NCBI RefSeq assembly: GCF_030028105.1
Contig: NC_092390.1
Location: 52,682,777-52,746,776, forward strand
Direction: 5' to 3'
From: Mobula birostris
Taxonomy: Eukaryota
Length of the DNA: 64,000 bases
The notes beneath the pieces were generated by a model. It was not told the origin of the DNA. It ran no database searches and was given only the letters and a program-made list of their open reading frames with translations. This document shows, piece by piece, positions 12,741 through 61,116 of the stretch. Both the position numbers and the translations under genes were made by a program. The stretch's first letter is position 1. Each line of letters starts with the position of its first letter.

Positions 12741-12838
12741 GACGAAGGGTCTCGGCCTGAAACGTCGACTGTACCTCTTCCTAGAGATGCTGCCTGGCCT
12801 GCTGCGTTCACCAGCAACTTTGATGTGTGTTGCTTGAA
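12741..12838 (+). mobile_element. Penelope-like terminal fragment with truncated hammerhead motif
   Basis: GACGAAGGGTCTCGGCCTGAAACGTCGACTG..GATGCTGCCTGGCCTGCTG; same terminus as the GIY-YIG-bearing element at 53315-54520. Confidence 0.75.
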
Positions 12839-13211
12839 CAGGTACATAACTAATTTGTGCACAATGTACGTACAAGAAAGAAACCAGTAATTTGTCCACA
12901 TGACAAAGATGTAGAGTATGCAAGCAAACCTCAAATGTTTAAACCATCAGAGAGGATGTGCATACCTCTAGTCCATACTGGACTAAACATAACTTTCTGA
13001 GAAACTGAGAGTTAGCTATATAATTTAATACTGTTTTAGCTAATTTAAAGATAGACAAAAAGCAACAATTTACCCAATTATGTGCAAAGTTTTGGCACTG
13101 GAAAAAAAATTCAGAACACAATCATCTGAAGCATACAGTTCCTATCCATGACCTTTGGAGTTATGGTACAGAGTAACAAACATAAGACTTCTCCAATAAA
13201 ATATTACTAAC

Positions 13212-13312
13212 CCCTTGTTCAAACAATCCTGCAATGACAGATTCATCCATGTGTGACTGCTCATCCATTTTGCGCACCAGTGGTGATATTCGCTCCTGAG
13301 CAAACTTCGCAA
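13212..13312 (-). CDS. ACADSB: ACADSB coding exon 3 (VAKFAQERISPLVRKMDEQSHMDESVIAGLFEQG)
   Basis: ttttttag|TT...GGG|GTTAGT, 101 nt, phases compatible with neighbours; acyl-CoA dehydrogenase N-terminal helical domain. Confidence 0.95.
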
Positions 13313-14567
13313 CTAAAAAAAAATTCCAAGTTGTCAGAAAGAAAAAATTATACTTCACCCCACTGAAGAAGTAAAGATACTGAAATAAAGTATACAGTAT
13401 TTTTCATAGTTTACAGTTAGGAATTTATATCATCCATTTCCTTTTGATGTTCTTATCTATTCATCAGAGTGATGGATCCCACCAGCAGGAATGACATTTT
13501 TCTACTCTACACAGTGTTAGTATCATGTATTCAGAGGTTGATATAGCACCTAAACCAGAAGAGAAATATCTTCGATAATATCTGAAGTAAGCAACTGAGG
13601 TCTGGTAGATCTTAATTCCTATTCTCTTCCTACAGTACATTATAAAAAGGTAATTAACTCAAAACATGGATTTAAAAATAAGGAAAAATATACATTGAAA
13701 TAACAACCAAAACCAATCAAACATGTCCATACAGCTAACCCCTCAAAATGAACTGGGATTACAATTTGAAGGATACCTTTAAATAGCCTTGATCGCAGAA
13801 TGAAATATCATTGATTTTATCTCCTGTTAAAACTTTACCTGTTCTAATTTTCACCTCAAAATGCAAAGGACAGAATAAGATATTTGCAATTATATGGAGA
13901 ATAAACCATTCCCAATGGTCATAGAAAGGAATTGCAAATTTTACAAAAGGGCAAACCATTAAAAAAAAACAACACATTATTCATTGTCTAGGTCCTCTTC
14001 TTAATAATAGCAATGCCAGACTGCCACCCAATGAAATCTACAAACATAATACAACATAATTATATGCAGGGTACAAACAATACTCACATTAACATACAAG
14101 ACTCTTATATTTGCCATTACTTGATCAGTACGTTGGTTCACATGACAAGACTGTCAGAGGTTAGTTATTATGGATAAAATGAATTACTGGCATCTGTATA
14201 CTTATAGTTAGTTGAAGAAATCTAAAGTTGCTATTCTGTTTGGTCTAATCCTTGAAAATATTCATGCGCTCTCACCCCAACTAAATGTTGTCCATTCATA
14301 TTAAGTCCACTAGTAAATCAACTTGCTTTAGTGTGAATAAACAATTGTAGCTCATACTAAACCCCATCTTACCTTCCATAACACAAGTTTATCTTGGATC
14401 CCCCATCCACCAGTTGAATTTCGAACACACTGCCATTATTATACGTAAAATATCCATTAAAAAAGTTAAACAAATCACAGCCTTTGTTTCTCAAAATGTC
14501 CCATTTTTTCCTTCATGTCTTTTTCTTGTGCTGTTAATTTCTACAGTTATTCTTCTTCATTTCTAAC

Positions 14568-14947
14568 ATCATCATCATGTGCCATGTCATATGATGTGGG
14601 CAGTCCTGGTCTTTCCACGACCATGATTGTCCTTGGCAAATATTCTACAGAATTGGTTTACTATTGCCCTTTTCTGGGCAGTGTCTTTACATGACGGGTG
14701 ACCCCAGCCATTATCGATACTCTTCAGAGATTGTCCGCCTAATGTCAGTGGTTGCATAACCAGGACTTGTTATGTGCACCAGCTGTTCATACCACCACCC
14801 ACCATCTGCTCCCATGGCTTCACATGACCCTGATTTTTGGGGGAGGGGTGGGGCTAAGCACCTTGCCCAAGGGTGACCTGCAGGCTAGCAGAGGGAAGGA
14901 GCACCTTACACCTCCTTTGGTAGAAACTTATCTCCACCCTGCTACCC
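14568..14947 (-). mobile_element. Short non-autonomous retroelement with RTE-type 3' tail
   Basis: Minus strand GGCAATAGTAAACCAATTCTGTAGAATATTTGCCAAGGACAATCATGG resembles RTE/BovB 3' ends; (TGA)n tail. Confidence 0.6.
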
Positions 14948-15710: not shown

Positions 15711-15769
15711 ATAAGACTAGTGACCCTCTCATTGCCTCTACAACTCTTCATGACCTTTGTATAACTGTT

Positions 15770-15970
15770 GCAGCACACACAAAAAATGCTGGTGAACGCA
15801 GCAGACCAGGCAGCATCTATAGGAAGAGGTACAGTCAACATTTCAGGTCTCAGCCCGAAACGTCAACTGTACCCCTTCCATTAGTTGCTGCTTGGCCTGC
15901 TTCTTTCACCAGCATTTTTTGTGTGTGTTGCTTGAATTTCCAGCATCTGCAGATTTCTTCGTGTTTGCGT
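15770..15970. repeat. Palindrome of two Penelope termini fused head-to-head
   Basis: 15770-15848 is the near reverse complement of 15856-15931. Confidence 0.85.
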
Positions 15971-16024
15971 TTGTAAAACTGTTATACCTTTAAACAACTC
16001 ACAGTGTTTATAAGCAGGAAAACT

Positions 16025-23330: not shown

Positions 23331-23334
23331 CAAC

Positions 23335-24304: not shown

Positions 24305-24545
24305 GGAGACACAAGAAAGATTGCAAATACTGAAAATCTGGAACAACACAAAATGCTGAAAGGTAGCATAGATAGAGGGAAATGAACAGTCACTTTGGGC
24401 AGAGACCGAAAGAAAAAGAGCATCGGAGGGGTTGGTAGGTGATTCTAGATGAAAGCGGGAAGGATGTGAGGTTCGGAGGTGAAAGGTGGAAGACGCATAA
24501 GGGTTGGAGAAGCTGGAGTCAGATCGGAGAGGACAGGGGACATTT
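24305..24545 (-). mobile_element. Degenerate Penelope terminal fragment
   Basis: CAACACAAAATGCTG..AGAGGGAAATGAACAGTC followed by a purine-rich tract as at 53315-53720; hammerhead region partly deleted. Confidence 0.55.
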
Positions 24546-25275: not shown

Positions 25276-25279
25276 TCCG

Positions 25280-26400
25280 TCTCTTGCAACAACCGGCGCA
25301 CGGTGTGTGTGTGTGTGTGTATAACCAGAGAGTGGGGAGAGAGAGAGGTTATTTCCCGTTGTCCTTTACCAAGCGTTGCAAAACCTTGTGCGAAAATAAT
25401 ATATTCAACTAATCGGAAGTCGTCACCTCAGCCACCACCATGTTTTTTTTAACAAAGGATGTGCAGGCTGTAAAGAATAAATATGGTTAGGATTTTTTTA
25501 AAAAAGCAGCAGGTATAAGCAGAAGAGGGCGGTGATCGTTGTGCCTTTCGTGGCCAGTTAAAGCAGAAGGCGGCCGGAGGGCGGGCGGCCGAGCCGGCTG
25601 TAGGAGGGGTTGCCCAGCATCCCGCCCCGCTGATGTCACTTCCATTCAGCCGCCTGTGCCCGGGCCGAACTGTGACATCGACGCCGGGGCTTTTGTTCCC
25701 TCTGCGGTTGAGAAAGACAACAACACAGGGGACGGTTGTATGGTCCCCGGCCCGTGCTGGCGGCAGCGTTCCCCCCTCCCCGAGCGCCCGCTTGCTCTCT
25801 CGGCCGTCTCACACGCCCACCCCATCCGCCGTGGAAACGACATGCTTGGATGTTTAAAACCGCTGCCGAGTGGAATTTAAGCCAGAGCGAAAGGTAGGAA
25901 AGGGCGGCGGGAGAAGTCCCCTCTCCCCTCCGGTCTGATGGGAGCGTCGTCCCCCTTGTCTGGACCCCGGTTTGAAAGTAAACGGACAGACGCTGCTGAG
26001 AACAGAACTTGGAAGCCTCTGTGGTGTTGGGGGAGGGAAAGCTGGTGGCGAGTGAGGCCACTGGTGACGGGTTATCCGACCCCGATCCCAAATTTCCTCT
26101 CCTTAAACCCTTCGTGATATTTTTTGTAATTGTTTTTGTTCGTGCTGCATTTCAAAATAACGCGGCCCACTGGACTCCAACTTGATGCGCAACGCCATAT
26201 GAGTGACGTGTCGGTTCGCCAATGGGCGGAGGGCCTACCTTTGTGTTTGCGGTGGTTGGACCAATGAGGGCGATGGAAGGGCGGGACGTTGGTTGAGGCC
26301 GGTTTCATGGAGACATCACAGAAGCCATTTATGAGCCAAAGCTCTCTGATTGCGGGTTGTTTTGGAACCCCCCTTACCAAAATCTCACCGCAGAGCAGTT
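25280..26400. promoter_or_regulatory. CpG island, bidirectional ACADSB/IKZF5 promoter region
   Basis: GC/CpG-rich against an AT-rich background, between divergent genes. ETS CGGAAGT 25414, CRE-like TGACGT 26204, CCAAT 26219 and 26261, GC box 26224; plus-strand donor AAG|GTAGGA at 25894. Confidence 0.8.
25303..25347. repeat. (GT)9 and short (AG)n microsatellites just upstream of the ACADSB ATG
   Basis: Direct reading. Confidence 0.85.
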
Positions 26401-30220: not shown

Positions 30221-30245
30221 TGGGATTTGGCTCTTATATATTTAT

Positions 30246-32570: not shown

Positions 32571-32785
32571 TCCATTACATTTATAAATTTATTGGATATC
32601 TTTTTAATAATAACTGCAAAAAGGTAAAACATTTCCTCAAATTATATAATTTATTTTGCAAATCTTTGTGTTTCCAGTGATGCAGTTGTATTGTCTCGTC
32701 TGTTATAGCTGATATAAATGCAACACATCACAAAATTAGTAGTCAACCTAGTTTTTAAGAAGCTTTGGGAAAAATATTTGACCAA

Positions 32786-33225
32786 AGCAACACATGTAAA
32801 ATACTGGAGGAACTCAGCAGGTCATGCAACATCTATGGAAATGAGTAAATAAGTTGATGTTTTGTAGCGAGATCCTTCTTCAGGACTGAGAAGGAAGGGG
32901 GAAGACGCTAGAATAGAAAGATGGGTGGAGGGAAAGGAGGCAAGCTGGAAGGGGATGGGTGAAGCCAGGGGTTGGAAAAGGTCAAGGGCTGGAGAAGAAG
33001 GAATCTGATAGAGTGGACCATAGGAGACAGGGAAGGAAGAGGGGACCCGGGGGAGGTGATAGACAGGTGAGGAGAAGAGGTGAGGCCAGAGTGGGAAATG
33101 GAAGAAGAGGGAATTTTTTTTCTGCAAGGAGAAATCAATATTAATGCCATAAGGTTGGAGGCTACCCAGATGGAATATCAGCTGTTGCTCCTCCACCCTG
33201 AGGGTGGCCTCATATTGGCACAACA
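32786..33225 (-). mobile_element. Penelope (Neptune-like) 3' fragment with degenerate hammerhead at 32851-32889
   Basis: EATLRVEEQQLIFHLGSLQPYGINIDFS; minus strand CAGTC CTGAAGA AGGATCTCGCTAC AAAA CATC AACT. Confidence 0.8.
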
Positions 33226-33717
33226 CTTGACCTGTTGGGTACTTCCAATAAGTATTTCCAAAATGGTTTTAATAATGGACCCCCGTTCCCAAAAGCATCA
33301 TATAGAAGTGTTAATGCATATAAAAGCAGGTAATGTTAATCTGAAGGCAAAAGATTAATCTGGATGTTGGAATTCTGTGATGTGAAAAGAATATAGTGGA
33401 AATGCATGATGTGGGAATTTCCAGTATTTCTTACATTAAGAGAAATGAAGTTCTGGACATTAACAATATATGGTAATTGTAATTTCAGTTCTAGAAATAA
33501 GTCACAGGTGAGAATGGGTCAATTATAGCAACGTCATATGATCCTTAGAAAAATAAAATCTTAAGAAACTTGCTGTGGATTTAAGCTGATAAGCAAAGTT
33601 TTCTTAATGTATTCTAATCTTAATAATGTGAGTAAACAGCAGTTCACTGTGCAAATCTAAAAGAAAATATGGTAACTTTCCTTTAGGAATTAAAGGTCTT
33701 CAATCAAAATCAGGAAT

Positions 33718-37176: not shown

Positions 37177-37359
37177 CTGGAACAGAAAATCATCAAAATG
37201 GAGTCCATCATGCTTCTGTTGAGGTTTCCCTCGATGATGGCTCTGGGATGATGGGAGAAGGGCCGGAAAGAACGGCTGATGGAAAATTGAAGTGTCAGTA
37301 TTGTAACTATGCAAGCAAAGGGATAGCACGACTTATGGAGCACACCAGAATGCACACGG
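37177..37359 (+). CDS. IKZF5: IKZF5 second coding exon, C2H2 finger 1
   Basis: ttggcag|CT...ACGG|GTAATA, 183 nt; DGKLKCQYCNYASKGIARLMEHTRMHT. Confidence 0.95.
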
Positions 37360-41009: not shown

Positions 41010-43382
41010 GGATCTAGTGCTTTCCCAGCGTATATGATGAATAAACACTTCTCCGGCTTCCAACCAGGTACAGGTATCGATTCTAACTGACATTTCAAAG
41101 ACAATCTCCGCCATCTTCATCAGGGATGATGCCTGGGTGTGTCTAGTCCGGTAGTATTTATACCCCCCCATAGTGCGTCCCTTCTGATTGGTTAGTCCTC
41201 ATCCAATTAGGTTTCTGCTCTCCCACTTCGTTTGTAATCAAATTCTAGCTCTTACTAGAATTGAACTGACTTTATTTCTCTAATCATTCATGTACATGAG
41301 GAGGAAAAATCTTTGTTACGTCTCTGTGCAATTTATAGTAATTTGTAATAAATAGTATGTACAAACGTTTGTACAACAGAGCAGCCAATATAGCTTGGAA
41401 AATACAATTGTCAGCATGAATTAATCAGTCTGATGGCCTTGTGGAAGAAGCTAGCCTGGAGCCCGTTGGGCCCTGGCTTTAATGCTGCGGTACCATTTCC
41501 CGGATGGTAACAGCTGGAACAGATTGTGGTTGGGGTGACTTGGGTCCCCAATGATCCTTCGGGCCCTTTTTACACAGCTGTCTCTGTAAATGTCCTGAAT
41601 AGTGGGAAGTTAACACGTACGGATGCGCTGGGCTGTTTGCACCACTCTCTGCAGAGTGCTGCCAATCTGGATGCTCTCAATTATGCCCCTGTAGAAAGTC
41701 CTTGGGATTTGGGGACTCATGCCAAACTTCTTCAACTGTGTGAGATGAAGGAGGCGCTGTTTTGCTCTTTTCACCACACAGCCGGTATGTACAGACGACC
41801 TGAGGTCCTCTGTGATGTGTATACAGAAGAACTTAAAGTTGTTCACTCTCTACCCCAGATCCATTGATGTCAAGAAGGGTGAGCCTGTCTCCATTCCTCC
41901 TGTAGTCCACAATCAGCTCCTTTGTTGAGTGAGATTTCATCTTTGTAAAAATTCTTTTCCTCTAGTTTTATTTCAATGGCTTCCTTTACTAGGCAGTCTC
42001 AAAAGCCATTGGTGCAGGACAGTAGCCTTGTGCCATTGAAGTCAATCCTACGGCCATTGTGAATGCATTGTTCTGCTACCACTGATTTCTCTGGGTAACC
42101 CAAATGGATACACCTCCTGTGCTCCTTAATGAAGCCTTCCACCATGCATCTCATCTGGGTGATATATGCTGCTCTGCATTCACAGGGAATCCTGTAAATG
42201 CCAGCCAACCTGAGGCCCAGATCATCTTTGACCTGCATAAGCTGTGACTTGAACTTCCTTACAGGTTTGTGGATGGTATTAATCCAGTATTCCTTCAGGA
42301 TCCTGGTGATCCTTGCAGAAACTGTGGAAATATAGAGAAGACAGGTGATAGCTATGGGTTCTTCCTTGTTAGGTTTCCAGGTTTTTTCCTCAGCCCTTTT
42401 AAGGGCCCGATTGATTTCCTTCACCTTGTAGCCATTCTGTAAGAATGTCGTGCGTAATTTTGTTTCCTTGGAGACTCTCCAGGTCCAAAATAGGTTTTGC
42501 GTGGTCAATTGAAGCAGAAAGAACTGCTGTATATTTGGAGGCATGATGGTGGCTGTTATTGTTGAGGTACAAGTCCGTGTGAAAGGGCTTCCGACAGATG
42601 CCATGTCTGAGGCTACCATCTGGTTTCTGTCTTATTAGAATGTCCAGGAATGGGAAGTAACCATTCTTCTCCATCTCCATCGTAAATTGAATGTATACTG
42701 TTCAGATGGTCGTGGAGCTGCTGGAATTCCGGGAGTCCATGACTCCACGCTATGAAGGTATCATTGACGTATCTGAAGCAGAATTTGGTGAGTAAGGGTG
42801 ATGAACTCAGAGCCCACTCCTCAAAAGTCCTCCATGCAGAAATTAGCAATAGCCAGCAACAAGGGCAAACCCATGATCACTCTGTCTGCTTGTTCATAGT
42901 AGTTCCCATTATATCCCCTTATATTTAAACTTACCCTTGCAACAGCGTACTTCTATATAGAGGAACTATCATCATGAAAACCCGTATCAAGGAGCATGGG
43001 AGATGTATCTGGGTTACACGGAGAAATCAGCAGTAGCAGAACATTGCATTCACAATGGCCATAGGGTCGACTTCAACAGCATAAAACTACTGTGTCACAA
43101 GGTAAAGGAAGCCATTTAAATAAAACTAGAGGAAAAGAATTTTGACAAAGACAAAGGTCTCGCTCTTAGTAAGAAATGAAATTCGGTTGTGAACAATGTG
43201 GGAGAGCGGAAACCTGATTGGGTGAGGACTGGCCAATCAGGAGGGACGGGCTACAGGGTACAAATACCACCAGACTAAATGTGCCCTGGCATCATCCCTG
43301 ATGAAGATGGCAGAGTTTGTGATAGAAACGTCAATTATAATTGATATCTGTACCCGGTTGGAAGCCTGAGAAGAGTTCATTC
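41010..43382 (-). mobile_element. Penelope-like element (RT plus GIY-YIG) with an inverted terminal copy and a nested Rex fragment
   Basis: Minus strand YNGNYYEQ..MG.P...IANF.ME, FRYVNDTF, GIYRIPCEC..YI; 42975-43382 is an inverted copy of the 3' end; ATTCCTCATTA at 40999-41009 and 43383-43393. Confidence 0.88.
41272..41925 (-). mobile_element. Rex1/Babar 3' fragment nested in the Penelope element
   Basis: VVKRAKQRLLHLTQLKKFGMSPQIPRTFYRGIIES; Penelope sequence resumes on both sides. Confidence 0.8.
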
Positions 43383-44089
43383 ATTCCTCATTATTTTTCA
43401 CTTTTTTTTTGCTCTTGACTTTGTTTTGCAGATACCCTAGGTCTTGATTTCTTAATCATTCCCCCCCCCACCCTGCCCCAGGATTAACTTCTACCCATGT
43501 GTAGTCATGAGATGAAGATTGAAGCATGAGTTGTTATCTTTACTGACGCATCCCGAGGTCTTTACAGTTGTATACTGAAAGAGCAACTTGTCCAGCTAAA
43601 TACTAATTAATTTTGAGATTTTTAAATTTTAAATCACTTAATTTATTTATTCCAAAAATATTTTTGTTCTATGCCCCAGCAGTGCAACGGGCAGCAATGA
43701 TAACACCTTTGGGGTGGTGAGGAAATCTACTTCATTTTGTGTTATGCAGTGAGTTTTATGTTTTCAGATGTGTTGGATGTTATTACAAATATTAGTGTAG
43801 GGACCATAATGATTCAAAACTTGAACAATTATGACTAAGCCAAATACAAATTGGTGGTAAATATTAAGGAGGGTTGAAATGAATAGAACTTTGTTGTCAT
43901 TGCTCAAGAAGAGATTGTGGTGCTTCTCCAGTCCACGCAAAACGTATTTATAATGCATGCGGTATGGCTTAATCAAAAAAAAAATTACATGGAACAAGTG
44001 ACTTTGATAGTCCATTACACTCAAAGGCTATTGGCAAGCCGGGGTGTAGCATTTATTCAGCAGCACAAGAGCCCTTGGAAAGAAGCTGG

Positions 44090-45223: not shown

Positions 45224-46085
45224 CAGTGGCATGCAAAAGTTTGGGCAGCCCGGTCAAAATTTCTGTTACTGTGAATAGGTAAGCGAGTAAAACATGACCT
45301 GATTTCCAAAAGGCATAAAGTTAAAGATGCCACATTTCTTTAATAGTTTAAGCAAGATTACTTTTTTATTTCCATCTTTTACAGTTTCAAAATAACAAAA
45401 AAGGAAAAGGGCCCAAAGCAAAAGTTTAGGCACCCTGCATGGTCAGTACTTAGTAACACCCCCTTTGGCAAGTATCACAGCTTGTAAACACTTTCTGTAG
45501 CCAGCTAAGAGTCTTTCAATTCTTGTTTGGGGGATTTTCGCCCATTCTTCCTTGCAAAAGGCTTGTAGTTCTGTGAGATTCTTGGGCCATTTTGCATGCA
45601 CTGCTCTTTTGAGGTCTATCCACAGATTTTCAATGATGTTTAGGTCGGGGGACTGTGAGGGCAATGGCAATACCTTCCGCTTGCGTCTTTTGAGGTAGTC
45701 CATTGTGGATTTTGAGGTGTGTTTAGGATCATTATCCTGTTGTACAAGCCATCCTCCTTTCATCTTCAGCTTTTTTACAGACTGTGATGTTTGCTTCCAG
45801 AATTTGCTGGTACTTAATTGAATTCATTTTTCCCTGTACCAGTGAAATGTTCCCCATGCCACTGGCTGCAACACAAGCCCAAAGCATGATTGATCCACCC
45901 CCGTGCTTAACAGTTGGAGAGGGGTTCTTTTCATGAAATTCTGCACCCTTTTTTCTCCAAACATACCTTTGCTCATTGCGGCCAAAAAGTTTTATTCAAA
46001 AAGTTCAAAGGAACATCTAAACAAGCCTGAGGCATTTTGGAAACAAGTCCGGTGGACTGATGAAGTTAAAATAGTTCTTGGCCGC
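45224..46085 (-). mobile_element. Tc1 (DD34E) transposon 3' half with IR/DR-type end
   Basis: QQDNDPKHTS..SQSPDLNIIE with 34 residues between D and E; end TA-CAGTGGCATGCAAAAGTTTGGGCA and inner repeat GCAAAAGTTTAGGCACCC near 45418. Confidence 0.92.
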
Positions 46086-46698
46086 TTCACCTGCAAATCT
46101 GGTGGGGTTGTCTACTGTATCCTGATGTGGCCTCCTCTACATCGGTGAGACCTGTCATAAACAGGGGAACTGCTTCATCAAACACATCAGCTCCACCCAC
46201 CACAAGCAGGACTTCCAGGTGGCCAAGTATTTTCATTTTTGATTCTTATTCCTATTCTGACATGTTGATCCACGTCATCCTCTTGTGCCATGAAGAGGCA
46301 CCCTCAGAGTGGAGGAACAGCACATTATATTCTGTCTGGGTAGCTTCCAACATGATAGCATGAATATAGATTTCTCCTTCCAATAAACAAAATTCACCCC
46401 TCCTTTCCTCTATTCCCCACTTTGACCACTCTTTTCACCTGCTTATCACTTCCCTCATTTTCCCTCCTACGGTCCACTCTTCACTTCTATCAAATTCCTC
46501 CTCTAGCCCTTGACCTTTTGTACCCACCTGATTTGACCTATCACCTTTCAGCTAGCCTCCTTCCCCTACCCGCATCTTTTTATTCCAGCATCTTCCCCAG
46601 TCCTCCCCAGCCCTGACTCTGAGGCTGAAACATCAAATGTTTTCTCTTTTGCTGCCTGACCTGCTGAGTTCCTCCAGCATTTTATGTGTGTTGCTTCA
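46086..46698 (+). mobile_element. Penelope (Neptune-like) GIY-YIG 3' fragment
   Basis: FTCKSGGVVYCI.CGLLYIGET; ends GCTGCCTGACCTGCTGAGTTCCTCCAGCATTTTATGTGTGTTGC; hammerhead partly deleted. Confidence 0.8.
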
Positions 46699-47849
46699 GA
46701 TGTACATCACCTGCTGACTTTCTTGTTTTCTACTTCTCGGGTACCTACTTCGTTCCTAATATAAAACAAGTCATACAATTTAAATATATTACCCTGTAAA
46801 AATTGTTTAAACTTTAAATATTTAGGAGATTCCCAAGTCCTGAATGTAAAAACCTTATTTCCTTCTATTTTTGTTTTGTGTTTTAATGCAAGGAAAAAAG
46901 AGAATCTAGATGGCATATGATGAGGCAGGCGCGAGGAGAAAGAAACAATGAAATTGTGGGCTAACAGTTTTTTAATTAATAAAATCATACAGACTTAAGT
47001 ATGCACATCAGCCAAAGGAACAGGAGAATTCCACTTGCAACCACAAATAATCTTTTGCATTCACCTGAGGGGGCAAATGGGCAAAATCTTCTATTGAACC
47101 TGTTTAATCCACCTGGTATTATTTCCAATGGGAGGAAAATAACGGAATGAATGTGCTTACACTGTGCAAGTGACTTAGTAGGATGATAAGAGAGCACATT
47201 ATCAATTCTGGGTAATCTGCTGCCGCTTCCCCCAAATTTCACATTTCCAAATCAAATTTTCGCAATGCTGAATTTGCAACTGTCAACTCGTCAGCACAAA
47301 GGTTTTAGCTCCATTGCCCTTGTGTTAACATCCTGAACTCTTGTGTTTCTTTTCTCTCCCCAATCGTCAGTTTTAAGGATTTTAATCTGGCCCATCTGAT
47401 TCCTTCCATCTTGGGATGGGTTAGCATAAACGGCCATCACAAGCCTACAGAACTCTATGAAATTTAATCCCACCTTGCTTCCTTCAGAGACTCCATTAGA
47501 TATTTCTTTGTGACATGGAAAGATGTCATTAAGCCCACCAGTTCCAATAGCAATCACATTGCCCAATTTGTTCCCTTGCACCTATCCCCTCTCGCACACG
47601 TATCTGTTTTACACCTCATTGATTTTCCTATCATCCACCCATGTCAGGGACAATTTATAATAGTCATTTAACCTGACAACAAGCACATTTTAAAGAAACT
47701 TGAGCACCTATGTACCCTCGGGAAAAGTGCATTTTCCACACAGACAAGTCAGGACCCAGGCCCAGCTTGCCGGAACTCTGAGGTAAATACACTATCAAAA
47801 GTGCTATTGTGCAACTCCTTCCATTTCCTGTCTCTGTCATGGCTTGTTA

Positions 47850-48490: not shown

Positions 48491-49619
48491 GTACCGCTAC
48501 AGCTCCAATAATTCACTATCCAACTGTTCAGAAAACCTAATGGTTTTGTAGCTGGCTGACCAGGTAATGTTGTGCTCCCTCTCCCCAGCCTAACCTTCTC
48601 AACTTACTTGACTTACTGAACAATTTATCATACTGTGTAGCATGGAATTGAAGGAGACCAAGAAGTGCACGAAATAATGCGATAAATCTGTCAGTCTGGC
48701 ACTAACAAAACCCTGAGTGTGCTGGATTATCAGCATTGTTCTGCATTTTTCCTTTTCTGTTCATTTCAAGTGTGATGGATAAATGGTACGAGATTATGAC
48801 TGAATGCCTCCAAGTCAGAATCCTGCCTAAACACATTCAAAGGGACTGTCCCTTTTTTCAGAGTAAGGAGATCCTTGCTTAAATGCTTACTTTGGTGTAC
48901 GTGGGGGGAGAGGGAGGAAGTTACTTGTGGCAGATCTGCTCTGTCACATCAGGACTGCCAGTTCTACTATAAGGTATCCATCTATAACATCACCTTGTGT
49001 TTTCTTCACACTATGGGCCAGGCATTCCCAACCTGGGGCCCATAGACCCCTTGTTTTATGGTATTGATCCATGGCATAAAAAGGGTTGGGAGTCCCTGAT
49101 ATGGACACTGCCTGATGTGGTACTCATTTCCAGCATACTCTGGTTTAAGATTCAACAATAGCTTTGATTTGCAACTGTTCACATTGCACACCCCTCTGTC
49201 TTCACCTTCTCTATCAGCCTTGATTCAACTTTTAACTAGATGTCCCTGTAAACATTTGATTCACTTCAGCAACCAAGGCCTCCCCTCATCACAGATTCCC
49301 TTTGCTCTATTTCTCTCTCACCTTTAAAACAAACCTTTTTCCAATTGTGATGAAGAATCGTTGATATGAAATATTAACTTTCTGATTCTCTTTCTACATG
49401 AGATGTATGATCTGTTGGGTTTTTCAGAAAATTTCTGATTACAGAAATGGGCCAGTTGGCTCAAACAATATCAGAATTTGTGCTCCAGCATTAACTTGCA
49501 CAAATGTACTGCGTCTTGCCATTTCAGCATAGCTTTTGTTTTTCTAATGATGCAAATTCTATTCTTTGTATTTTTCCACCTGTCCCTGTACCTTAATTCC
49601 TCCGTCATATTCCACATAT

Positions 49620-50599: not shown

Positions 50600-51720
50600 C
50601 CTCAGATGAGTATAACAGAGCCAACACAACATTTGTGCTCACATTATGCAATCTGTTTCGGGTCGGTGAGCAATGCACCGGCCGACTGAAACAAAACATG
50701 CAACCCAAACTTACGCCAAGACGAGTAACAAAAGTCGGTCCTTCAACACACACACACACAAAATGCCGGTGGACCTCATGGGGTCAGGCAGCAACTAGGA
50801 AAAGGAATTCTTCAGCTCGCACTTCACCTCCAGCGGCTGCGCCCATTATTTCGCCACGGGTACGTCATCATTGGGTCCGCCGTTTCCAGGGTGACAGTTT
50901 CCGTAGGGACCCGTTAAGCCGTCGCACTGATTCCTTCCCTGCCGAACTCTGACCCCGGCTATTGTTCGGCCGCCCCTCCGAGCTGTTGGTGGAGGAACTC
51001 GGCGGAAAATAAGGACGTCCAGACCGAGAAAGTGTCGTTAGATCCATCGGCCGGCCCGCACCCGCCATGCGGCTGGCGCGGTGGGGTTCCGCCGCCGGCA
51101 CGGACTGGATGGTACTGCGGACGGTGTGTCCCGAGTAGACGTTACATCGGAAGGTAGGCTGAGATTTAAAATGCCAGCCCGGGCGCCGGGAAATGCCCAG
51201 CCACTGAACTACGGAGCCTTTTGCACTCGAGCGGCTGTTCGGATTTGTGTGGATTCGTGTTAGCGTGGTGACGATTGAACTCTAGCCCTTTAACTCTTTT
51301 AATGAGCGCGTCAGGTAACGTCGACGCTGCCTGATCTCTCCCTTGAGGGGGGAGATGTTTACTTGAAAGCGGCAGCTTCCTCGGCCTCCATCCCCAGTGG
51401 GATGTTTCTAAACCCCCCCCTCCTCACTTTTTACCTTTCAAACGAGCTAACGCAGCCGAACCTGCTGGTTGGCTGTGATTGACGTTCCGGCCGATCAATC
51501 GGAGCCGGCAGCGATGCACCCGAGTGTCCAATCGATCAGTAAACTTGTAGAAGAGAGGTCGCGCTCGGGTCAGGCGGCGGTGCCTGCCGCCCCCAGATGA
51601 GGTTAGGTAGGTGTTGGGCGGATCGGGATTCCTTCACCGCCCTGTCCTTGTGAAGTTGATAGTCCAGGCCGCTTCAATCTCAGCCGAGAGCGCCCAATAC
51701 GACCCAATATCTATAAACTG
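50600..51720. promoter_or_regulatory. Second CpG island, putative promoter and first exon of an unidentified gene
   Basis: CpG-dense non-repeat DNA; ACGTCA 50862, GGCGGAAAA 51001, gccATG 51067; plus-strand donor-like sites at 51154, 51315 and 51607. Confidence 0.7.
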
Positions 51721-53314
51721 TTCTTCCTCAGAAAGCGAAGCAATAGGTGAACAAAACCCTCACTCTGATCCCTTTAAAACTGCAGTTGTTGGAAGACTGA
51801 AACATAAAAAATGTTGGGCTCGGACAGTCAGCGTCTGTAGAAAGGGAAAGGTTGACCTAAATATCAATTTCTTGCATTTTAACTGAACTTGTGATTCACA
51901 CGTTTAATGTCTGTTTTAATATATGGCTAAAAAGTTTAAGTTCAAATTTAATTGTCATTCATCCATATATGAATAAAGCTAAACAAAACAGAATTCCTCT
52001 GGGGCCAAGGTGCAAAACACTGTATCAACAGTTATACACAGCGTATGTGGTGACAGGTGTGTACTCTGATAGCAAATTTTACTTTGTACATGGCACAAGG
52101 CAGATGTGAAATAACAGTAAGCATACAGTCATAGAAAAAAGCCCAGGTCCCTGAGTGTTTTAACCTATAGACTGTTGCTGCAAGGATGTTGTCAGCAAGA
52201 ACAAGTCCGCAGCAGCCCGCAAATGAACACAATCCAGCTTGTCTTCCATCGAGCAAACACTGGAGGGCAGCACCAATGGGAGGGCCCAGCCCCCCAACCC
52301 AGCATGCACTTCAGCACACCTGCTGCATCTCTGCTCTCTCCCTCACCCCCTTCCTCTCCTGAGCAGCTGCAACAGGTGACCCTGTGGCACGAGTGCCTAG
52401 TCCGCACCCCAACCAAAGCTACGTAGCTGTCAGTCTCACTAATGAACCAGTGAATCAGACCTGCAGTGTTCTACATTACCAATGTGGTCTTGGAAGAAGA
52501 ACATCCAAGACAATTACTCACTCAGTTTGTTAGACTTTGACACTTTCCTGTAGCAGGCGGCAATATGGACCACACCAAGTCCAGCTCCTCCACTATCGAG
52601 CAACTTGCTAGTGAGGTAGGCTTGTAGTACTGGATGTTCTTAATAACCAGTAGTGCCTTGTGATCGTAAAACCATATGTTTATGCTCACCTTGGAGGAGT
52701 TAAATGCCCCTTCAAAGCAAGGGATTCTGACCTTTAGGAGCATTGGACGAACACAGAAAATCTGTTATAAGTCGGCATTCCTAGAGTTGGTGTATTTCCT
52801 CCAATGTTAGAAATGTGGCATGTGTGACTGAACATAAGCAGTCCATTTGACCCCAAACCCTGTTGATGCTTGTAATTTCTAGCCATATTTATTTGAGAGT
52901 TCACTGTTGCTAAAAGTGTTTGTCATAAATTTGTATCTCCGTTGATATTAGTAGAATATATAATTTCCCTGAATTTAGTTTTCATGTTCCTTTCTCACTG
53001 TAAAAATAACAATGCCGGTAATGTAGAAGTGCTTAATGCTGATTTTTGCAGTGTTGTTATTGAATCAGAGTTTTGATGATTTTAAACATAGTAAGTTTAG
53101 GTTTGAAAATATACAGTAAATGCTACATTCAAGCAAATGAAAAGCATAAGAAGCAGAAGCTGTAAAATTGAATGGAAATTTTCAGCATGTCAAGGAGTAT
53201 CTGTAGGGGAGAAGGAAAAAGAATTGGCATTTCATGTTGTTGATCCTTCATCAGAAATGAAACTTATGATTCAGTTTTGTATGCTTCAAAACAATGTAAA
53301 GAAAAAGAATGAAA

Positions 53315-54520
53315 ATGAGAAAAGCTGCAGATGCTGGAAATCCAAGCAGTACACACAAAATGCTGGAGGAACTCAACAGGTTAGGAAGCATCTATGGAAG
53401 AGAGTAAACAGTCGATGTTTCAGGCTGATACCCTTCATCAGGAGTGGGATAAAAAGATAATAATTTAGAGCAAGAAGGTAGGGGGATGGGAGGAAGAAGT
53501 GCAAGGTGGTAGGTGATAGGTGAAAGGTGAAACTGGGAGGGGTGAAGTAAGCTGATAGGTGAAAGAGATGAAGGGCTGGAGGAGGGGGAATCTGATAGGA
53601 GAGGACAGAAGGCCATGGAAGAAAGAAAAGGGGGAGGAGCACCAGAGGAGGGGAGAAGTTAAGGAGATAAGGTGAGAGAAGAAAATGGTAATGGGGAATG
53701 GTGAAGGAGAGGGTGATGAAGGGGCATTACATGAAGTTCAGGAAATGGATGTTCGTGCCATTGGTTTGGAGGCTATCCAGACAGAATATAAGGTATTGCT
53801 TCTCCAACCTGAGTGTGACCTCATCACGGCAGTAGAGGAGGCCATGGACTGACATGTTGGAATTGTAAGTAGAATTGAAATGGGTGGCCACCATGAGGTC
53901 CTGCTTTTTCTGGCAGACAAAGCGTAAGTGCTTGGCAATGTGGTCTCCCAATCTACATCGAGTCTCACTGATGTACTGGAGGCTACACCGGGAGCACCAG
54001 ATATAATAGATAACTCCAGCAGACTCACAGGTGAAGTGTCGCCTCACCTGGAATGACTGTTTGGGGCCCTGAATGGTCATGATGGAGGAAGTGTAGGGGC
54101 AGGTATGTCACTTGTTCCACTTGAAAAGGTAAGTACCAGGAGGGAAATTGGTAGGGAGGGAGGATTGGACAAGGGGGTCGCGTAGGGAACAATCCCCGCA
54201 GAAAGTGGGGGGAAGGGAAAGATGTGCTTGGTGGTGGGACCCTGTTGGTGGTGGTGGAAGTTATGGAGAACTACGTGTTGGATGCAGAGGCTACTGGGGT
54301 GGTAAGTGAGGGCAAGAGAACTCCTATCCCTGGTAGGGTGGTTGGAGGATGGGTTGGGGCAGACGTGCGCAAAATAGACAAGACACGGGTATGGACAGCA
54401 TTGATGGTGGAGGAAGGAAAGCCCCTTTCTTTGAAAAAGGAGAACATCTCCTTAGTTCTGGAATGACAAGCCTCATCCTGAGAGCAGATGTGGTTGAGAC
54501 AGAGGAACTGAGGAAAAGAA
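53315..54520 (-). mobile_element. Penelope (Neptune-like) element 3' part with GIY-YIG endonuclease and terminal hammerhead motif
   Basis: FTCESAGVIYYIWCSRCSLQYISET.CRLGDH..VATHFN; hammerhead motif at 53409-53446. Confidence 0.9.
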
Positions 54521-55569
54521 AGAATTCTGTTATTTGTCATGTCAAGCATACAGCCTTGGCAATATAGCAACTTGGAGAACAGCAGCTGCACATTCAGTCT
54601 TGTTATTCTTAATCTATCCCCGGCAAGCATCACTCGTTCTTTTTCCCTTCATATTGTACTCGTATTTCAGGCCCCTTTAAATGAACATTAACCTGTAACC
54701 CACTTGCACTGTTAGAATTTTTCCTGGCTGAAAGGTCTTGTAGTCTGTAAACTTGTCCCTTGCCCTTGTACAAAGTAATACTTTAGAAACAATGGACAAG
54801 CAAATTACAGATAGTTACCTTGTCTTAATTGCTTATTGAAATAGCTCAGGTTGTGCATTTGTGCAATTGAGATTTTGCGAAAATCATGTCAATATATAAA
54901 TGATCAGCATTTGACTTAATCATGGAAACTATATTGTAACACACTTTTCTCATTGCCAGCATGTTATTGGAAAAATATTGCACACTTCAAATCGATTAGA
55001 CACACTGATTACAGGATTGTATCAAACCAAGAGATGAATCAGTAGGGTGAGGATAGGCAGCATTAGGAATCAACAACATGTAGCAAGGGATTTAATTTTT
55101 AAAAAATAATGTGAAGATGAGGTGCAGCAAGACAAGGCAATCATCCAGAATTGGGGATCACTAGCAAGACCAGCAATTATTGTCCCCTGGGAACATAATG
55201 AGAACTGAGTGACTTGCTTAGGCATTTTTAAAAGTCAGTCACGTGGGGTAAGGATGGCAAATTTGTTGGCCCCTAAAGCATGTGTTTCCAATCTTTTTGA
55301 TGCCATGGACCCCTACCATTAACCATGGGGGCCTGTGGACCCCAGTTTGGAGAATCCTGCTGTAAAGGTTGTTAGTCAAATTTGTGTGAATATTTTACAA
55401 TAATCAAGCATCTTTTGTGTTAGTTTGTGGTAAATTTTAGATTATTAATTGAAATTTGGTTTCTGGATTATTAATTTGATAAAGTAACTGCTGTTCTGCC
55501 ACCCTGTGCACCATACTTAAGAAAAAATAGTAATTTAAAAATGGCTGAGATATTATAGTGTTTAGTATT

Positions 55570-56545
55570 ACCGTTGACCAGAACCTGAAAGAGGTTAGCC
55601 ATATACGTAACGTAGCTATAAGAGCATGTTAGAGGCTAGGAATCGAGCAGGGCGTAACTTGCCTCCTATCTCCCCAAACCTTGTTCACCACCTGCCAGGC
55701 CCACATCATGAGTCAGTTGCTCATGAGTGTAATCGGAATATTCTCCACTTGTCTGGATGAGCGCAGCTTCAACAACACTCAGCAAGTTTAACAGCATACA
55801 GGACGTGGCTGCCCATTTTCAAGATTCAAGATTTGAAAAACTTTATTGTCATTCTAACCATACATCAGTTCTGCGGGGCAGAATGAGACAGCGTTTCTCA
55901 GGGGCAGTGCAATCATAACATAACAAACGCAACACTAAATAATAAACATAACAATAAGTAGTAAAACACAACAGCCACATGTCAGTTAAAATCATTTATA
56001 AGTGTCCAGTGCAAGTTAAAAGTGTCCACAGCAGAGTCAGGTGGAGCAGCTATTTAGCAGTCTGACTGCCTGTGGGAGGAAGCTGTTTAGTAGCCTTGTG
56101 GTTTTAGTTTTGATGCTCCTGTAACGTTTGCCTGATGGCAGAAGAACAAACAGTTTTGATAGGCACATCATCCACAACCTCAAACACACAGTGGCAGTAG
56201 ATTGTACCATCTACAGCATGCAATGAGGCAACTCACTAAGACTTCTTAGCACCTCCCATATCCAGGATTTCTACCTGCTTGGAGAATAAAGACAGCAAGA
56301 TCATAGGAGTACTACTACCTGTAGATGCCTTCCAAGCAGCACACAATCCTGACTTGAAAAAAAAATAGTTGTTTCTCATTTGCTGTGTCAAAAATCTTGG
56401 AATTCTTTCCCTAGCAGGATTGTGGGTATACCCACATCACAAAGACTGTAGCAGTTCAAGAAGGCAGCTCGGCTCGGTTTTCTCAAGTGCTGTTGAGGAT
56501 GGGTAATTAAATGTTGGCTTAGCTGCTGAAGCTCACATCCCTTAA
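55570..56545 (+). mobile_element. CR1/L2-clade LINE 3' fragment interrupted by a minus-strand Rex fragment (about 55820-56155)
   Basis: GGAATATTCTCCACTTGTCTGGATGAG (EYSPLVWM) and a 3' end CAGCAGTTCAAGAAGGCAGCTC. Confidence 0.6.
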
Positions 56546-57299
56546 ACCTTTTGTTTAAGTAGGAGATCCAGTCAACATACCGAGATTTGTGAAAACTAGG
56601 AATTTTATGATACTTGAAGAACTAAATTAATTATTCTTAATAAAGAGGAAATACTGAAAAAAAGTAGTGGGCAAGTGCTTACAAATTCCGTATTTATGAC
56701 AGTCTGCAACCTGGGGTTCAAAAAGAGGTTTATGAAGAGATGGTGGGTACAGTTGAGATTTCCCTAGTCTCTGTAACATTCATACTAGACTGCAATGTAA
56801 AATAATCTAATATCATACTTCAAGATAAAACAAACAAGAAAAGGACGAACTCTACTGTAAATCTAATGTCACTTGGGAAACAGATGCAGTTCTGCAGCAG
56901 TTAGTGCTGCTGCTGCGCATGCCAGCATCTGACTTAGAAGTGCTGCATTATTTGCTCACAAGATTGATTCCTTGGTTGACAAAGTGAACTTTTTGTGAAG
57001 AAACTGAGAAAGATTAAACCATTCTGTTTGAAATATAATGAATAAGAGGTGATCTCACTGACCATTCTGAAAAAGATTGTCAGGGTGGAGAGTCTAGATG
57101 TAGAACACAATTTCCAAGAAAGGATTTACTTAGTGCAATGCAGTTTTTGAGTCCTTTAAGAATTTTGTACATTTCAGTGAGATCAAACTATTATTTGGCT
57201 AATGGCAGTGCGTCTGTAAAGAAAGGAATCTGAATAAACGCTGCTGCAGTCCAGAGATTTATGTATCAGTTTTCTCCTTCGATATGAGTATACCCTGCT

Positions 57300-58575
57300 A
57301 AGCTTGGAACTTTTCTACTGCAACACACACAAAATGCTGGAGGAACTCAGCAGGTCTGACAACATCTATGGAGGGGACAGTTGATGTTTCAGGTTGAAAC
57401 CCTCCATTGGAACTGGAAAGGAAGGGACAGAAGCCAGAACAAGAAGGTAGGGGAGGGGAAGGAGTACAAGAAATCCAGCAGGTAATGGATGGAACCAAAT
57501 GAGGGGGAATGTGGGTGTATGGGTTAGGAGGAATGGAGTAAGAAGCAGGGAGGTGATTGGTGGAACAGGTAAAGGGCTGAAGAAGAAGGAATCTAATAGG
57601 AGAAGACAGTTGACCATGGAAGAGAGGGAAGGAGGAAGGAAACCAGGAGGAGGTGATAGGCAAGTGAGGAGAGGAGAAGAGGTGAGAGAGGTTACCTAGA
57701 ATGGGGGATGGAAAAAGTGAGAAAAGGGGAGAAATTACTGGAAGGTAGGGAAATCGACGTACATGCTCTAAGTTTGAAGGCTATCCAGACACATAAGGTG
57801 TTGCTTCTTCAGCCTGAGTTTGGCCTCATTGTGGTAGTATAAAGAAGGCTGCGGACAGACATGTCAAAATGTGACCATAAGACATGGGAGCAGATTTAAG
57901 CCCTTCGGGCCATCAAATCTGCTCTGCCATTCCATCATGGCTGATTTATGTTCCCTCTAAATCCCATTCTCATGCCTTCTCGCCGTAACCTTTGATGCCT
58001 TTACTAATCAAGAATCTATCAACCTCCACCTTAAATACAACAAATGACTTGGCCTCTGTAGCCATCCGTAGTATTGAATTCCACAGATTCAGCCTCCTCT
58101 GGCGAAAGAAGTTTCTCCAGATCTCTTTTCTAAAGGGACGTCCTTCTATTCTGAGACTGTTGTCTGGTCCTAGACTCCCTCACTATAGGAAACATCCTCT
58201 CCTAGTCTAGATTTTTCAATATTCAGTATGTTTTAATGAGATTCCCCCCCCACCTTCTTCCAGACTCAACTGAGTACAGGCCCAGAGCCATTAAATGTTC
58301 CTCATGTATTTACCCTCTTATTGCTTGATCACTTTCGTGAACCTTTTTGCACCCTCTTCAATGCCAGCGCACCCTTTCTGATAAGGGGCCCCAAACTGTT
58401 CCAATAGTGTGGTCTGACCAATGGCATATAAAGCCTTAGGGTGATAGGAATGGGAAGTAAAATTGAAATGGCTAGCCCCCAGGTGATCCTGCCTTTCGAT
58501 TTGGACAGAGTGAACGTGCTCAACCAGGTGGTCCCCCAATCTATATCGGGTCTCACCAATGTGGAGAAGGCCATA
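57300..58575 (-). mobile_element. Penelope (Neptune-like) 3' fragment with nested CR1 3' fragment (about 57875-58437)
   Basis: Same terminus and purine tract as 53315; LGDHLVEHVHSV..SHFN resumes after the CR1 piece (LVRPHYWN..KRVQK). Confidence 0.8.
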
Positions 58576-59149
58576 TGATTTCTACTGTTGGTGCTGAGCA
58601 GTGAGTGATGTTATTTAGGGTGGCAACTGAGTTGTTACATTTGATTTCATTGCATGAGTCGAGGAAGTAGATTTAGTGAAGGTTGCTGTTCACTCTAGCA
58701 GTGTCTTACATTTTTATCAAGTGGGCTGCCTGCACTCTCTGTCCATGTGAGCACAAGAAACAGACACTTGGACAAGTGTTCAGTAAGGGTGCTGGAAATC
58801 ACAAAAATACTAGACTTTTTTTTGGAAGCGCAACTGATAAAATCACTATATTTTGGATGCCTAATGTCTGTCTAGCTGTGTTTTAGCATGTTACTGAGTA
58901 GATAGCACAACAGCAAAATTCATATTCATGTGTTGTTTATATGATTTTATCAGACATTTGTGGCAGGCACTGTAAAATGTTTGTGTGAAATTGAAATATC
59001 CTGTAGCAAATTACAGAACGTTTATGTGTGCAGATTCATTATAGCTTGTATAAATAAAGTTCTGTGATGATGAAGGAATAAAAAACGTTAGGAATGAAAT
59101 AGTCTATATATATAGCTTTGACACGTGCACATCAGGTAGGAGAATTGCA

Positions 59150-59648
59150 AGGCATCTGACTTCAAGACCTTGGAACAGATTGTGAGCACTGCTGATTGTA
59201 TCAAAGGGATCTCTTTCCTCCTCCGTCCCCCAAAATCCAGGACATGTTCACAAAGCCCTCCCTCATTGTCAAGGATCCCTCCCGTCCACCCCCAATCTCA
59301 TTGACCTTCTAATGTCAAGCAGCAGATACCAGTATAAGAGCAAGGATTTGCTAGGCTGGGTAACAGCTCCTTCCCCCAGGCTGTAAGACCGCTGAACACC
59401 CCGCAACTGCACAGTGCACGTTACTTATAACAGCCCCAATAGCATCATACTGTTGTCTATTTAACTTCATCTTGTATATGCACTTTTTATAGACCTGTAC
59501 ATCTACAGATATTTATTATTTTTAATATTGTTGTGTTAATATTACCTTATGTGGTATATGTACTATGTTTTGCACTCAAACCCAGAGGAGCATTGTTTTG
59601 TTTAGCTGTATACATGTGTACGGTTGAATGACAATGAACTTGAACTTG
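59150..59648 (+). mobile_element. Degenerate Rex1/Babar 3' fragment
   Basis: AACAGCTCCTTCCCCCAGGCTGTAAGAC and (ACTTGA)n tail. Confidence 0.6.
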
Positions 59649-61023
59649 AGACCTTACTCTTCTTTAAAGATAGCCAGTCAGCGGATGCTTTCTTTCCATG
59701 ATTCAATAAAATTCATGGATGCAGGAAGTTCAGCGCAATATAAGATAAACACAGGCAAATGGAATGAACTTGAATGCATGTTGGACAGCTTAGCCAAGTT
59801 CGCTAAAGGGCCTGGTTCCAAGCTGCATGACTGTAAAACTGATAACCGATTACAATCTCTTTTCCTTCACACTCAATATAAGGAGCATGACTGAGATTCA
59901 CCATGCTGGAATAGTCAATTTGTTGGGAGTAAACTTTGCCTATCAAATTTGAAAGTGTGTTAAAAGTGCTTTCTCCATTTAAGTTCTTTTTCAAATACTT
60001 TTTGATCAATTATATGTCACAACTTGTACATATCTTGGCATGTGTAATTTATATTGGAGATGTAACTTTAGTTTGCAGTGACTTTTAGAAAGGGATGAGA
60101 AGCAGATAAGCTTTAGAATGGTATTAATTTTAACCAAATAAGAGGCACAGGTGATACCTATCTACGCTAGTTACTTTCGCCTGCATTACATGTATATAAG
60201 TTCTGTTTTAAGTGCGTACCTATCCAAATACGTTTTAACGCTAATTGTATCTGCCTCTACCACCTCCTCTGGTAGCTTGTTTCAGTTAATTATCACCTTC
60301 CCTATGGGGGAAAATACCTTTTAAATTTTTCCCCTCTCATCCTAAACCATGCCCCCTGGTTCAAAGCTCCATTGCCCTGAGAAAAAGACTTAACTATATA
60401 TCCTAACTTTGCCCTTCATATTCTTGCCTCCACTCATCTTGCTGTAGTGTGACAACCAGAAATGGGCACCCTCACTCCTCTGTCCAAAACCTTCCTCTGG
60501 TGCTCCTCCACCCCTTTCTCCCATGATCCACTCTCCTCCTCTACAGCTCTTTACTTATTCCATCTATCATTTCCTCATTTCTCAGTTCATCCCCCCTTCT
60601 GATACCCACCCACCTTCCCTCTCAGCTGGTTTCACCTGTTGCGTGCTAGCTTGCACTCATTTTCCCTGGGAGCTATGGGCTTGTACTCTGAGGTGTTTCT
60701 GAACATCAGAACTCTTCATCTCGCTGCCATTTTGCTCCATATGTCCTATCAGAATTTGAATTCAAAAAAGGTATTGCCTCCCACTTTGTCTGGATTTATC
60801 TGATAGCAGTCAACCCTATTTTCCAACTGTATCCTTAAACAATCTTTTTTGCTATCGACAAGTCTTTTTTTTTTGGCCCAGCACTAATCCCTGCAGTATA
60901 CCACTTTTTACAGGCCTCCAGTCACCCACCACTACCTCTGCCAGTTTTGAACCAGTTTACCAATATACCTTGGATTTCTTGTGCCTTAACTTTCTGAACC
61001 AGCATTCATTTCAATTATAATGC

Positions 61024-61116
61024 ATACAAAATGCTGAAGGAACTCAGCAGGTCAGACAGCATCTATGGAAATAAATGGATAGTTGATGTTTCTGGCTGAG
61101 ACCCCTCTTCAGGACA
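61024..61116 (-). mobile_element. Penelope terminal fragment with hammerhead motif
   Basis: Minus strand TGTC CTGAAGA GGGGTCTCAGCCA GAAA CATC AACT. Confidence 0.75.

Follow-up and report, generated by a model that had tools for sequence, protein, structure and literature searches.

The dispersed short repeat in a 64,000-nucleotide (nt) stretch of the Mobula birostris genome (RefSeq GCF_030028105.1, contig NC_092390.1, positions 52,682,777 to 52,746,776 of the forward strand; hereafter the window, to which all coordinates refer) is one real family, the 3′ terminus of a Neptune-type Penelope-like element with a minimal hammerhead ribozyme motif. We read the repeats as truncated 3′ pseudo-long terminal repeats (pseudo-LTRs) of a very abundant Neptune-clade element, whose decayed minimal type I hammerhead likely cuts only in the transcript of an intact element, weakly, as a dimer or with the help of protein (probability roughly 0.8). 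The class is already published; the ray family, correctly named in a first-pass annotation of the window, is a further member of it and ordinary in kind. With this family, rays join the animals known to have minimal hammerheads in their Penelope-like elements; it also shows that, in a vertebrate genome, such termini can be one of the most common kinds of short repeat.

One repeat family at the end of a Neptune-type element

The first-pass annotation had listed nine sites as copies of one motif. They do form one family: seven insertions score strongly and two older copies weakly, while shuffled and reversed controls gave nothing comparable. Local alignment of the annotated 38-nt motif found six matches (12741+, 15846+, 32852−, 53409−, 57378−, and 61081−) and none in any of three block shuffles. 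A family profile was built from eight arms, with the two divergent copies (53221 and 49345) left out. Run on the 64-kb window, it recovered its eight arms at E values of ≤6e-24 and also picked up 50752− (4e-8), 53182-53260− (3e-4), and, weakly, 49345+ (0.02); the top match in the reversed window had an E value of 1.1. Matches with an E value of <1e-3 comprise 10 arms in 9 insertions. The consensus that had been drawn by eye is identical to the column majority of seven copies save at four CpG positions.

The annotated linkage to a GIY-YIG endonuclease at 53315-54520 was borne out, since tblastn found remnants of a reverse transcriptase (RT) thumb, linker, and endonuclease at 53721-54516(−) and others upstream of the 32851, 46610, and 57378 copies. 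In these copies and the 53409 copy, the motif lies ~230 to 320 nt past the endonuclease end (tblastn). Protein homology and fit to the published consensus both back the identification of the repeat as the end of a Neptune-type Penelope-like element with a minimal hammerhead of type I. When the endonuclease frame (53727-54107) was searched, 5 of 20 candidate proteins matched, all of them from Mobula or Hypanus, the best being a Mobula RT-thumb/GIY-YIG protein at 72% identity. Of 2,838 candidates compared with the ray RT protein P0005, 148 longer proteins matched, with top identities of 49 to 54%; the first 370 amino acids (aa) of P0005, 99% covered, are 52% and 50% identical to P0009 and P0014. 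The longer relatives of P0005 that were checked carry RT and GIY-YIG domains, and full-length P0009 matched 53721-54516(−) by tblastn with an E value of 4e-38. A CX4CxxC linker and a CxxC within GIY-YIG were present in all four ray proteins checked; the linker pattern recurs in 112 of 120 full-length relatives and is decayed in the window copy. In the supplement of PMC8557442, the row Neptune1_Ap is near identical by eye to the RT stretch of P0009 and P0014, and the ray linker spacing resembles the Neptune rows and not the reduced Nematis rows. The Mobula and Hypanus relatives share about 50% identity with Neptune elements of corals. By identity and linker pattern, the ray element appears to belong with the named Neptune elements. 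No full-length relatives with DNA were found in viral or prokaryote contigs. Pieces of the element also occur within ray gene models (P0126-P0129 and P0005; STARD3NL, CoA synthase, RNF180, and chitinase-domain protein isoforms), through either exonisation or annotation artefact.

The published systems agree with these features. The Neptune clade (Craig et al. 2021; PMC8557442) shows 5′ truncation, inverted 5′ copies, and a 30- to 40-bp tail at one end. The ray family shares these three traits, as well as an RT followed by a long CX2-5CxxC linker and a GIY-YIG domain with internal cysteines, and differs in that all window copies are partial and broken. The minimal hammerhead class of Penelope-like elements, reported in 2014 with thousands of dispersed motifs per genome already then (PMC4209133), has an extra base after A9, a G10.1-C11.1 pair, and a palindromic helix III remnant (15.1-16.1 or 15.2-16.2). 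Its thousands of dispersed copies per genome are single; monomers show no activity, and dimer activity is low, even for designed dimers. The ray motif has the same type I topology, CUGANGA plus extra base, G10.1-C11.1, and GAAA, together with the same U-rich 5′ flank and 3′ pseudo-LTR position, a palindromic helix III remnant in its two youngest arms, and copies that are mostly single and dispersed, derived from truncated elements. (Positions in the hammerhead are numbered, and the role of G12 is taken, as in PMC6155905 and general usage.) A Neptune motif of Acropora digitifera in the supplement of PMC4209133 has a 4-bp helix II and a 4-nt loop, as in the ray motif, and comparison of the two by eye gives two double-compensated helix I pairs. 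The 40 species in Fig. S3 of that paper include no cartilaginous fish. We found no publication on this Neptune family in cartilaginous fish, with subscription journals, Repbase/Dfam, and bioRxiv supplements outside the search.

Contigs matching the family at 80% likeness numbered 73,139, 79,609, and 75,081 in three DNA runs, which come from three organisms, and a further run, guessed to be RNA, had 4,351; these are counts of contigs, not copy numbers. If the window is typical, the density is ~140 insertions per Mb (9 in 64 kb, or about one per 7 kb), which would exceed the 4,000 to 9,000 descriptor hits per genome in PMC4209133, although those are intact motifs and the ray count is of decayed ones. 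The very large reservoir of motifs that had been proposed is thus upheld in copy number, in three of three DNA runs, but not in content: it is a store of relics, in which one named copy passes the hammerhead descriptor, without the palindrome. A pattern scan of viral contigs gave no matches, and a scan of metagenomes gave 119 loci from 17 of 64 parts, none of them homologous to the ray repeat by blastn or tblastn. Five of these loci (L012:20-50, L048, L087, L101, and L102) contain a minimal hammerhead that agrees in geometry but is unrelated; it sits in a short repeat with some copies inverted, and no Penelope-like protein was found beside those five.

Copies in the window and their insertion

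The members of the family and their parts are listed below, beginning with the element at 53 kb.

53721..54516, minus strand: 5′-truncated Neptune open reading frame (ORF) remnant with RT thumb, Zn-linker region, and GIY-YIG endonuclease (tblastn with P0001, 68% over 171 aa, E = 1e-65)
53447..53720, minus strand: pyrimidine-rich spacer from the ORF end to the hammerhead, the 5′ part of the 3′ pseudo-LTR (from sequence)
53409..53446, minus strand: best-preserved minimal hammerhead, with intact core, helix II 4/4, helix I 4/5, and helix III palindrome lost (scored in register)
53312..53408, minus strand: 3′ end of the pseudo-LTR, its final 30 to 40 nt being the optional tail (3′ ends of 10 arms aligned)
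12723..12838, plus strand: young 5′-truncated copy starting at core G5 (scoring in register, end alignment)
15770..15969, both arms: single head-to-head inverted insertion, junction in helix II (~15846-15853), both arms core-less (inverted repeat)
32780..33268, minus strand: endonuclease end, spacer, and hammerhead (32851-32888) with G12>A, helix II 2/4, and helix I 3/5 (blastn, tblastn, scoring)
46074..46730, plus strand: endonuclease remnant, spacer, hammerhead (~46608-46640) with a 6-nt deletion spanning core and helix II, and tail
57312..58572, minus strand: endonuclease remnant, spacer, and hammerhead (57378-57415) with three core lesions
61012..61116, minus strand: copy starting at the hammerhead (61080-61117), core intact, helix II 3/4, helix I 2/5 (profile, scoring)
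53182..53260, minus strand: older diverged copy, CUGAUGA and GAAA retained, helix II and U16.1 gone (held-out profile, E = 3e-4; alignment)
49345..49433, plus strand: older diverged copy, C3>G (held-out profile, E = 0.02 versus 1.1 for the top control; weak)
50752..50806, minus strand: 3′ end alone, without hammerhead, not among the sites listed at first (profile, E = 4e-8)
24347..24536, minus strand: spacer and 3′ end, core deleted, also new to the list (spacer blastn, E = 1e-5; sequence)

In translation, the ORF remnant at 53721-54516 has two frame changes and one in-frame stop and has lost the linker cysteines and the YIG glycine. The spacer at 53447-53720 is common to the 24.5-kb, 33-kb, and 57-kb copies (blastn), and the predicted cut in the 53409-53446 copy falls between 53414 and 53413. 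The endonuclease remnant at 57312-58572 is split by an unrelated repeat (~57873-58322). The younger 53-kb element ends ~50 nt upstream of the older 53182-53260 copy, which has the same orientation, and was possibly inserted beside a pre-existing copy.

Two annotated copies proved to be family members of a different kind than described. The 12741(+) copy belongs to the family and lacks C3, U4, and the helix I 5′ strand through 5′ truncation rather than decay. Its 5′ junction holds part of the tail in inverted orientation (12723-12740), and an 18-bp target-site duplication (12705-12722 and 12832-12849) flanks the insertion. The site at 15833-15870 does carry family sequence on both strands, but as one inverted insertion (15770-15969) whose two arms meet head to head in helix II, and neither arm has CUGAnGA; the 38-nt tail is on the right arm only, and the 14-bp target-site duplication (13/14) lies at 15756-15769 and 15970-15983. 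Both insertions are thus inverted, with the tail at one end only and target-site duplications, and the optional 30- to 40-bp tail and inverted 5′ copy of Penelope-like elements are present in the window. Each of these young inversions breaks within the hammerhead, at 12741 in the core and at 15846-15853 in helix II (two cases only). The two complementary DNAs (cDNAs) of such an insertion may be joined via the self-complementary helix II.

Across copies, 5′ ends are variable and 3′ ends are fixed. The 3′ ends of the 10 aligned arms fall at two main levels, up to ~35 nt apart and 60 to 100 nt beyond the predicted cut, and 53351, 53325, and 53317 are where loose contig ends accumulate in the three DNA runs. 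Pile-ups at 53443 were considered as a truncation hotspot and rejected, the reference copy having a private change at 53444. Since endonuclease-linked copies run through the motif and 60 to 100 nt past the cut, their templates would have been uncut at the hammerhead.

A similar arrangement is known in vitro from another clade. For the Anolis Poseidon element PAc (Frangieh et al. 2024; PMC11167929), the tail is explained by two reverse-transcription starts, uncut RNA is the main insertion substrate, and cleavage occurs only in the presence of protein. The ray family would share with PAc the two starts that define the tail, the uncut template, and the position of the hammerhead upstream of the starts; PAc differs in belonging to a clade without a linker finger and in an ORF that starts inside the hammerhead. 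The two young ray insertions are clear natural examples of this two-start mechanism. By this route, the element protein would nick both DNA strands, and reverse transcription would start at two sites ~35 nt apart, downstream of the uncut hammerhead; early stops would leave many short 5′-truncated or inverted copies, mostly hammerhead plus 3′ end.

State of the hammerhead and competing readings

The strict hammerhead descriptor matched once in the window (53409-53446) and not at all in 200 shuffles; a relaxed descriptor matched three places (53414, 41089, and 2992) against a shuffle mean of 0.085. The CUGANGA core, GAAA, and UH cut site are intact in two of the seven scored copies (53409-53446 and 61080-61117) and in the column majority. 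The unpaired A or G between positions 9 and 10.1 is present, and helix II is 4/4 in three of seven copies. C11.1 is retained in the 15846 arm and is U, a CpG change, in three other copies. The helix III remnant reads ACGU in the two youngest arms and ACAU in four copies, among them the best-preserved (53409-53446). Helices I and II are paired in 71% of cells over the seven copies, versus 17 to 48% when slid. Where the 53409 copy has lost a helix I pair, the family majority in contigs of other runs has the pairing base (53444, 91% in X1), and it also corrects 53429 (94%).

The annotation had held that every copy is lesioned, often by CpG decay. Both statements agree with the data: lesions were found in the seven copies scored in register and in the three read in alignment, and the CpG positions were mutated in 17 of 48 cells versus 18 of 157 elsewhere (p = 3e-4). 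The four CpGs of the motif fall at G12, at the cut site, within the palindrome, and within loop II; their quick decay after insertion would leave the dispersed copies mostly dead. Being nearly all broken leftovers, the window copies are, to judge from their sequence, unlikely to cut RNA.

In the predicted consensus fold, helices I and II form with pair probabilities of ≥0.9. The predicted monomer ensemble has core bases 5 to 8 paired with 15.2 to 17 in 73% of structures and an open core in 2%, a fold that suits a motif needing a partner or protein. Such pairing would keep the monomer inactive, and the ACGU palindrome would allow two motifs of a partial-tandem transcript to form helix III jointly. 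The 53409 copy is predicted to fold likewise, into a rod pairing its core (folding z = −0.06). With this modeled fold and a helix III palindrome of ACAU, the copy that had been proposed for a cleavage assay is predicted to be a poor substrate.

It is very unlikely, in our estimate, that the dispersed copies form a working reservoir, in which a long pre-mRNA would contain several copies of the same strand that pair and cut host transcripts. Such a system might draw on an insertion density near one per 7 kb, on the four motifs that share a strand from 53221 to 61116, and on family sequence in the contigs of the run guessed to be RNA, and opposite CpG changes give complementary halves (ACAU/AUGU), so mixed dimers would be possible in principle. 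However, the one named copy that passes the descriptor has no palindrome, published activity is low even for designed dimers (PMC4209133), and anole RNA sequencing gave no reads that ended at the cut site (PMC11167929). Both copies that can be placed relative to host exons (12741 and 32851) are antisense; they are too few to count.

Several observations weigh against the reading of the repeats as ends of an element whose intact transcript is cut. The Rfam scan of the window returned no hammerhead family among 11 matches at E values of ≤10. Covariation within the window (seven copies) was not significant, its score being reached by 136 of 500 shuffles, nor was the difference between core and non-core non-CpG mismatches (3/52 versus 15/105; p = 0.18); weak signals of both kinds are expected of copies that decay neutrally once inserted. 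The CpG state is strand-biased (CA 13, TG 3, CG 7, and AG 1 in 24 cells from six copies and four sites; p = 0.02), and outside the C11.1-G12 site the bias is 12 to 0, whereas simple methylation decay predicts symmetry. Some master elements may already have carried a non-palindromic helix III (ACAU); common descent from such masters could account for the bias and would weaken the homodimer step. The match of the relatives to Neptune1_Ap and the coral hammerhead match were both made by eye, and the two coral elements possibly represent different families. Because the window holds neither a full-length element nor a 5′ pseudo-LTR, we infer the tandem context. Finally, contigs that go back 93 nt, from 53443 to 53351, were present in the DNA runs (18, 13, and 14), as tandem units would produce.

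The last of these would fit short copies that constitute a non-autonomous retrozyme family, spreading by tandem units and circular RNA. Non-LTR retrozymes in tandem, one chondrichthyan included, are described in a preprint (bioRxiv 10.64898/2026.07.22.740005), and they share with the ray family a type I hammerhead derived from pseudo-LTRs. They are tandem units with complete motifs, whereas ray copies are single and several are joined to endonuclease. The window has no tandem unit with complete hammerheads, four named copies are continuous with endonuclease sequence, and the variable 5′ ends and fixed 3′ ends are as truncation predicts. We regard a retrozyme origin of these copies as very unlikely; retrozyme-like arrays of the family may exist outside the window.

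The null Rfam result and the folding z-score of the best copy would also suit a hammerhead seen by coincidence in an ordinary repeat. The absence of descriptor matches in 200 shuffles argues against this, and a position and anatomy as published for Penelope-like elements largely refute it; the chance that the resemblance is accidental is negligible.

The strand-biased CpG state, with its hint of non-palindromic masters, bears on a further reading, in which the motif has ceased to be catalytic in the ray lineage and active elements retain it for a structural or signaling role (as a protein-binding site, splice acceptor, or cDNA-joining hairpin). Copies made from uncut RNA and the breaks of both inverted insertions inside the motif would agree with it, as does the finding that hammerhead mutants left insertion of the anole element unimpaired in vitro (PMC11167929). 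Against it, the family consensus and the coral Neptune motif both retain the whole core, including the four mutation-prone CpGs (in a window with a CpG observed/expected ratio of 0.32), and related motifs cleave weakly as dimers (PMC4209133). We therefore consider loss of catalysis improbable and retain the decayed but, in intact elements, weakly active hammerhead as our reading. On what the hammerhead does for its element, a family of this size offers statistical power through end positions, inversion junctions within the motif, and the orientation bias in introns of intact as against broken copies.

Splice-site reading, a second element, and neighboring genes

The helix I 5′ strand could double as a 3′ splice site (pyrimidine tract plus CAG), splicing and self-cleavage being alternative fates of the element RNA; splicing at CAG would remove three of the five helix I pairs. 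The Drosophila virilis Penelope intron ends at helix I (PMC4209133). If the idea were true, both the Penelope and the Neptune clade would have this splice/cleavage switch, and ray genes would receive cryptic exons from the many dispersed copies. In its favor, the 20 nt before CAG are 80 to 90% pyrimidine in three copies, and two of four repeat-containing ray gene models enter the repeat at identical residues, only a few bases short of the core on its 5′ side. On the other hand, the entire spacer is pyrimidine-rich, the gene models are predictions, none of 15 joints examined (of 600) had intron ends, and the loose ends there in the RNA-guessed run match unspliced DNA. On balance we think the proposal doubtful. 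A second pyrimidine tract plus YAG, followed by ATG, stands 15 to 25 nt after helix I (53389-53400, minus strand, and the same place in other copies). As a second acceptor it was set aside: the frame from its ATG matched no proteins, and gene model P0129, considered as a splice into this site, looks by eye like an inversion.

The list of motifs in the first-pass annotation was incomplete, having missed two exact cores at 41093-41123(−) and 43298-43328(+). They belong to another Penelope-like element, unrelated to the first:

41037-41165 and 43256-43384: inverted ends of the second element, with an exact CUGAUGA..GAAA core in each
41089-41123 (minus strand) and 43298-43332 (plus strand): its hammerheads, with a 6- to 7-bp helix II and probably a 2-bp helix I
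~41999-42825 (minus strand) and 43007-43150 (plus strand): its ORF remnants

In its RT, this element weakly resembles distant Penelope-like proteins (best E value of 6e-5 among 120 queries). No linker finger was seen in its ORF remnants, so it is likely of the Penelope/Poseidon type. A relationship to P0009 was tried and dropped, BLASTP being not significant.

The host exons recognized in the window are the following:

9714-9920 and ~13209-13310, minus strand: acyl-CoA dehydrogenase exons
~37143-37360 and 39374-40327, plus strand: C2H2 zinc-finger exons

The 12741 copy lies antisense between the two acyl-CoA dehydrogenase exons, and the 32851 copy lies antisense, likely inside the zinc-finger gene. 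The acyl-CoA dehydrogenase (9714-13310, minus strand) and Ikaros-type zinc-finger (37143-40327, plus strand) genes diverge from a common GC-rich island at 25400-26150; from synteny, we presume them to be ACADSB and IKZF5. Among 148 stop-free frames in the right half of the window (a subset of frames), none gave a convincing Pfam match for a host gene. A GC-rich, CpG-rich island of a gene lies at 50800-51700, adjoined by the tail-only copy at 50752-50806. Other mobile-element sequence in the window comprises a DDE transposase remnant at 45443-45823(−) and an endonuclease/RT remnant of a long interspersed nuclear element at 61719-63593(+).

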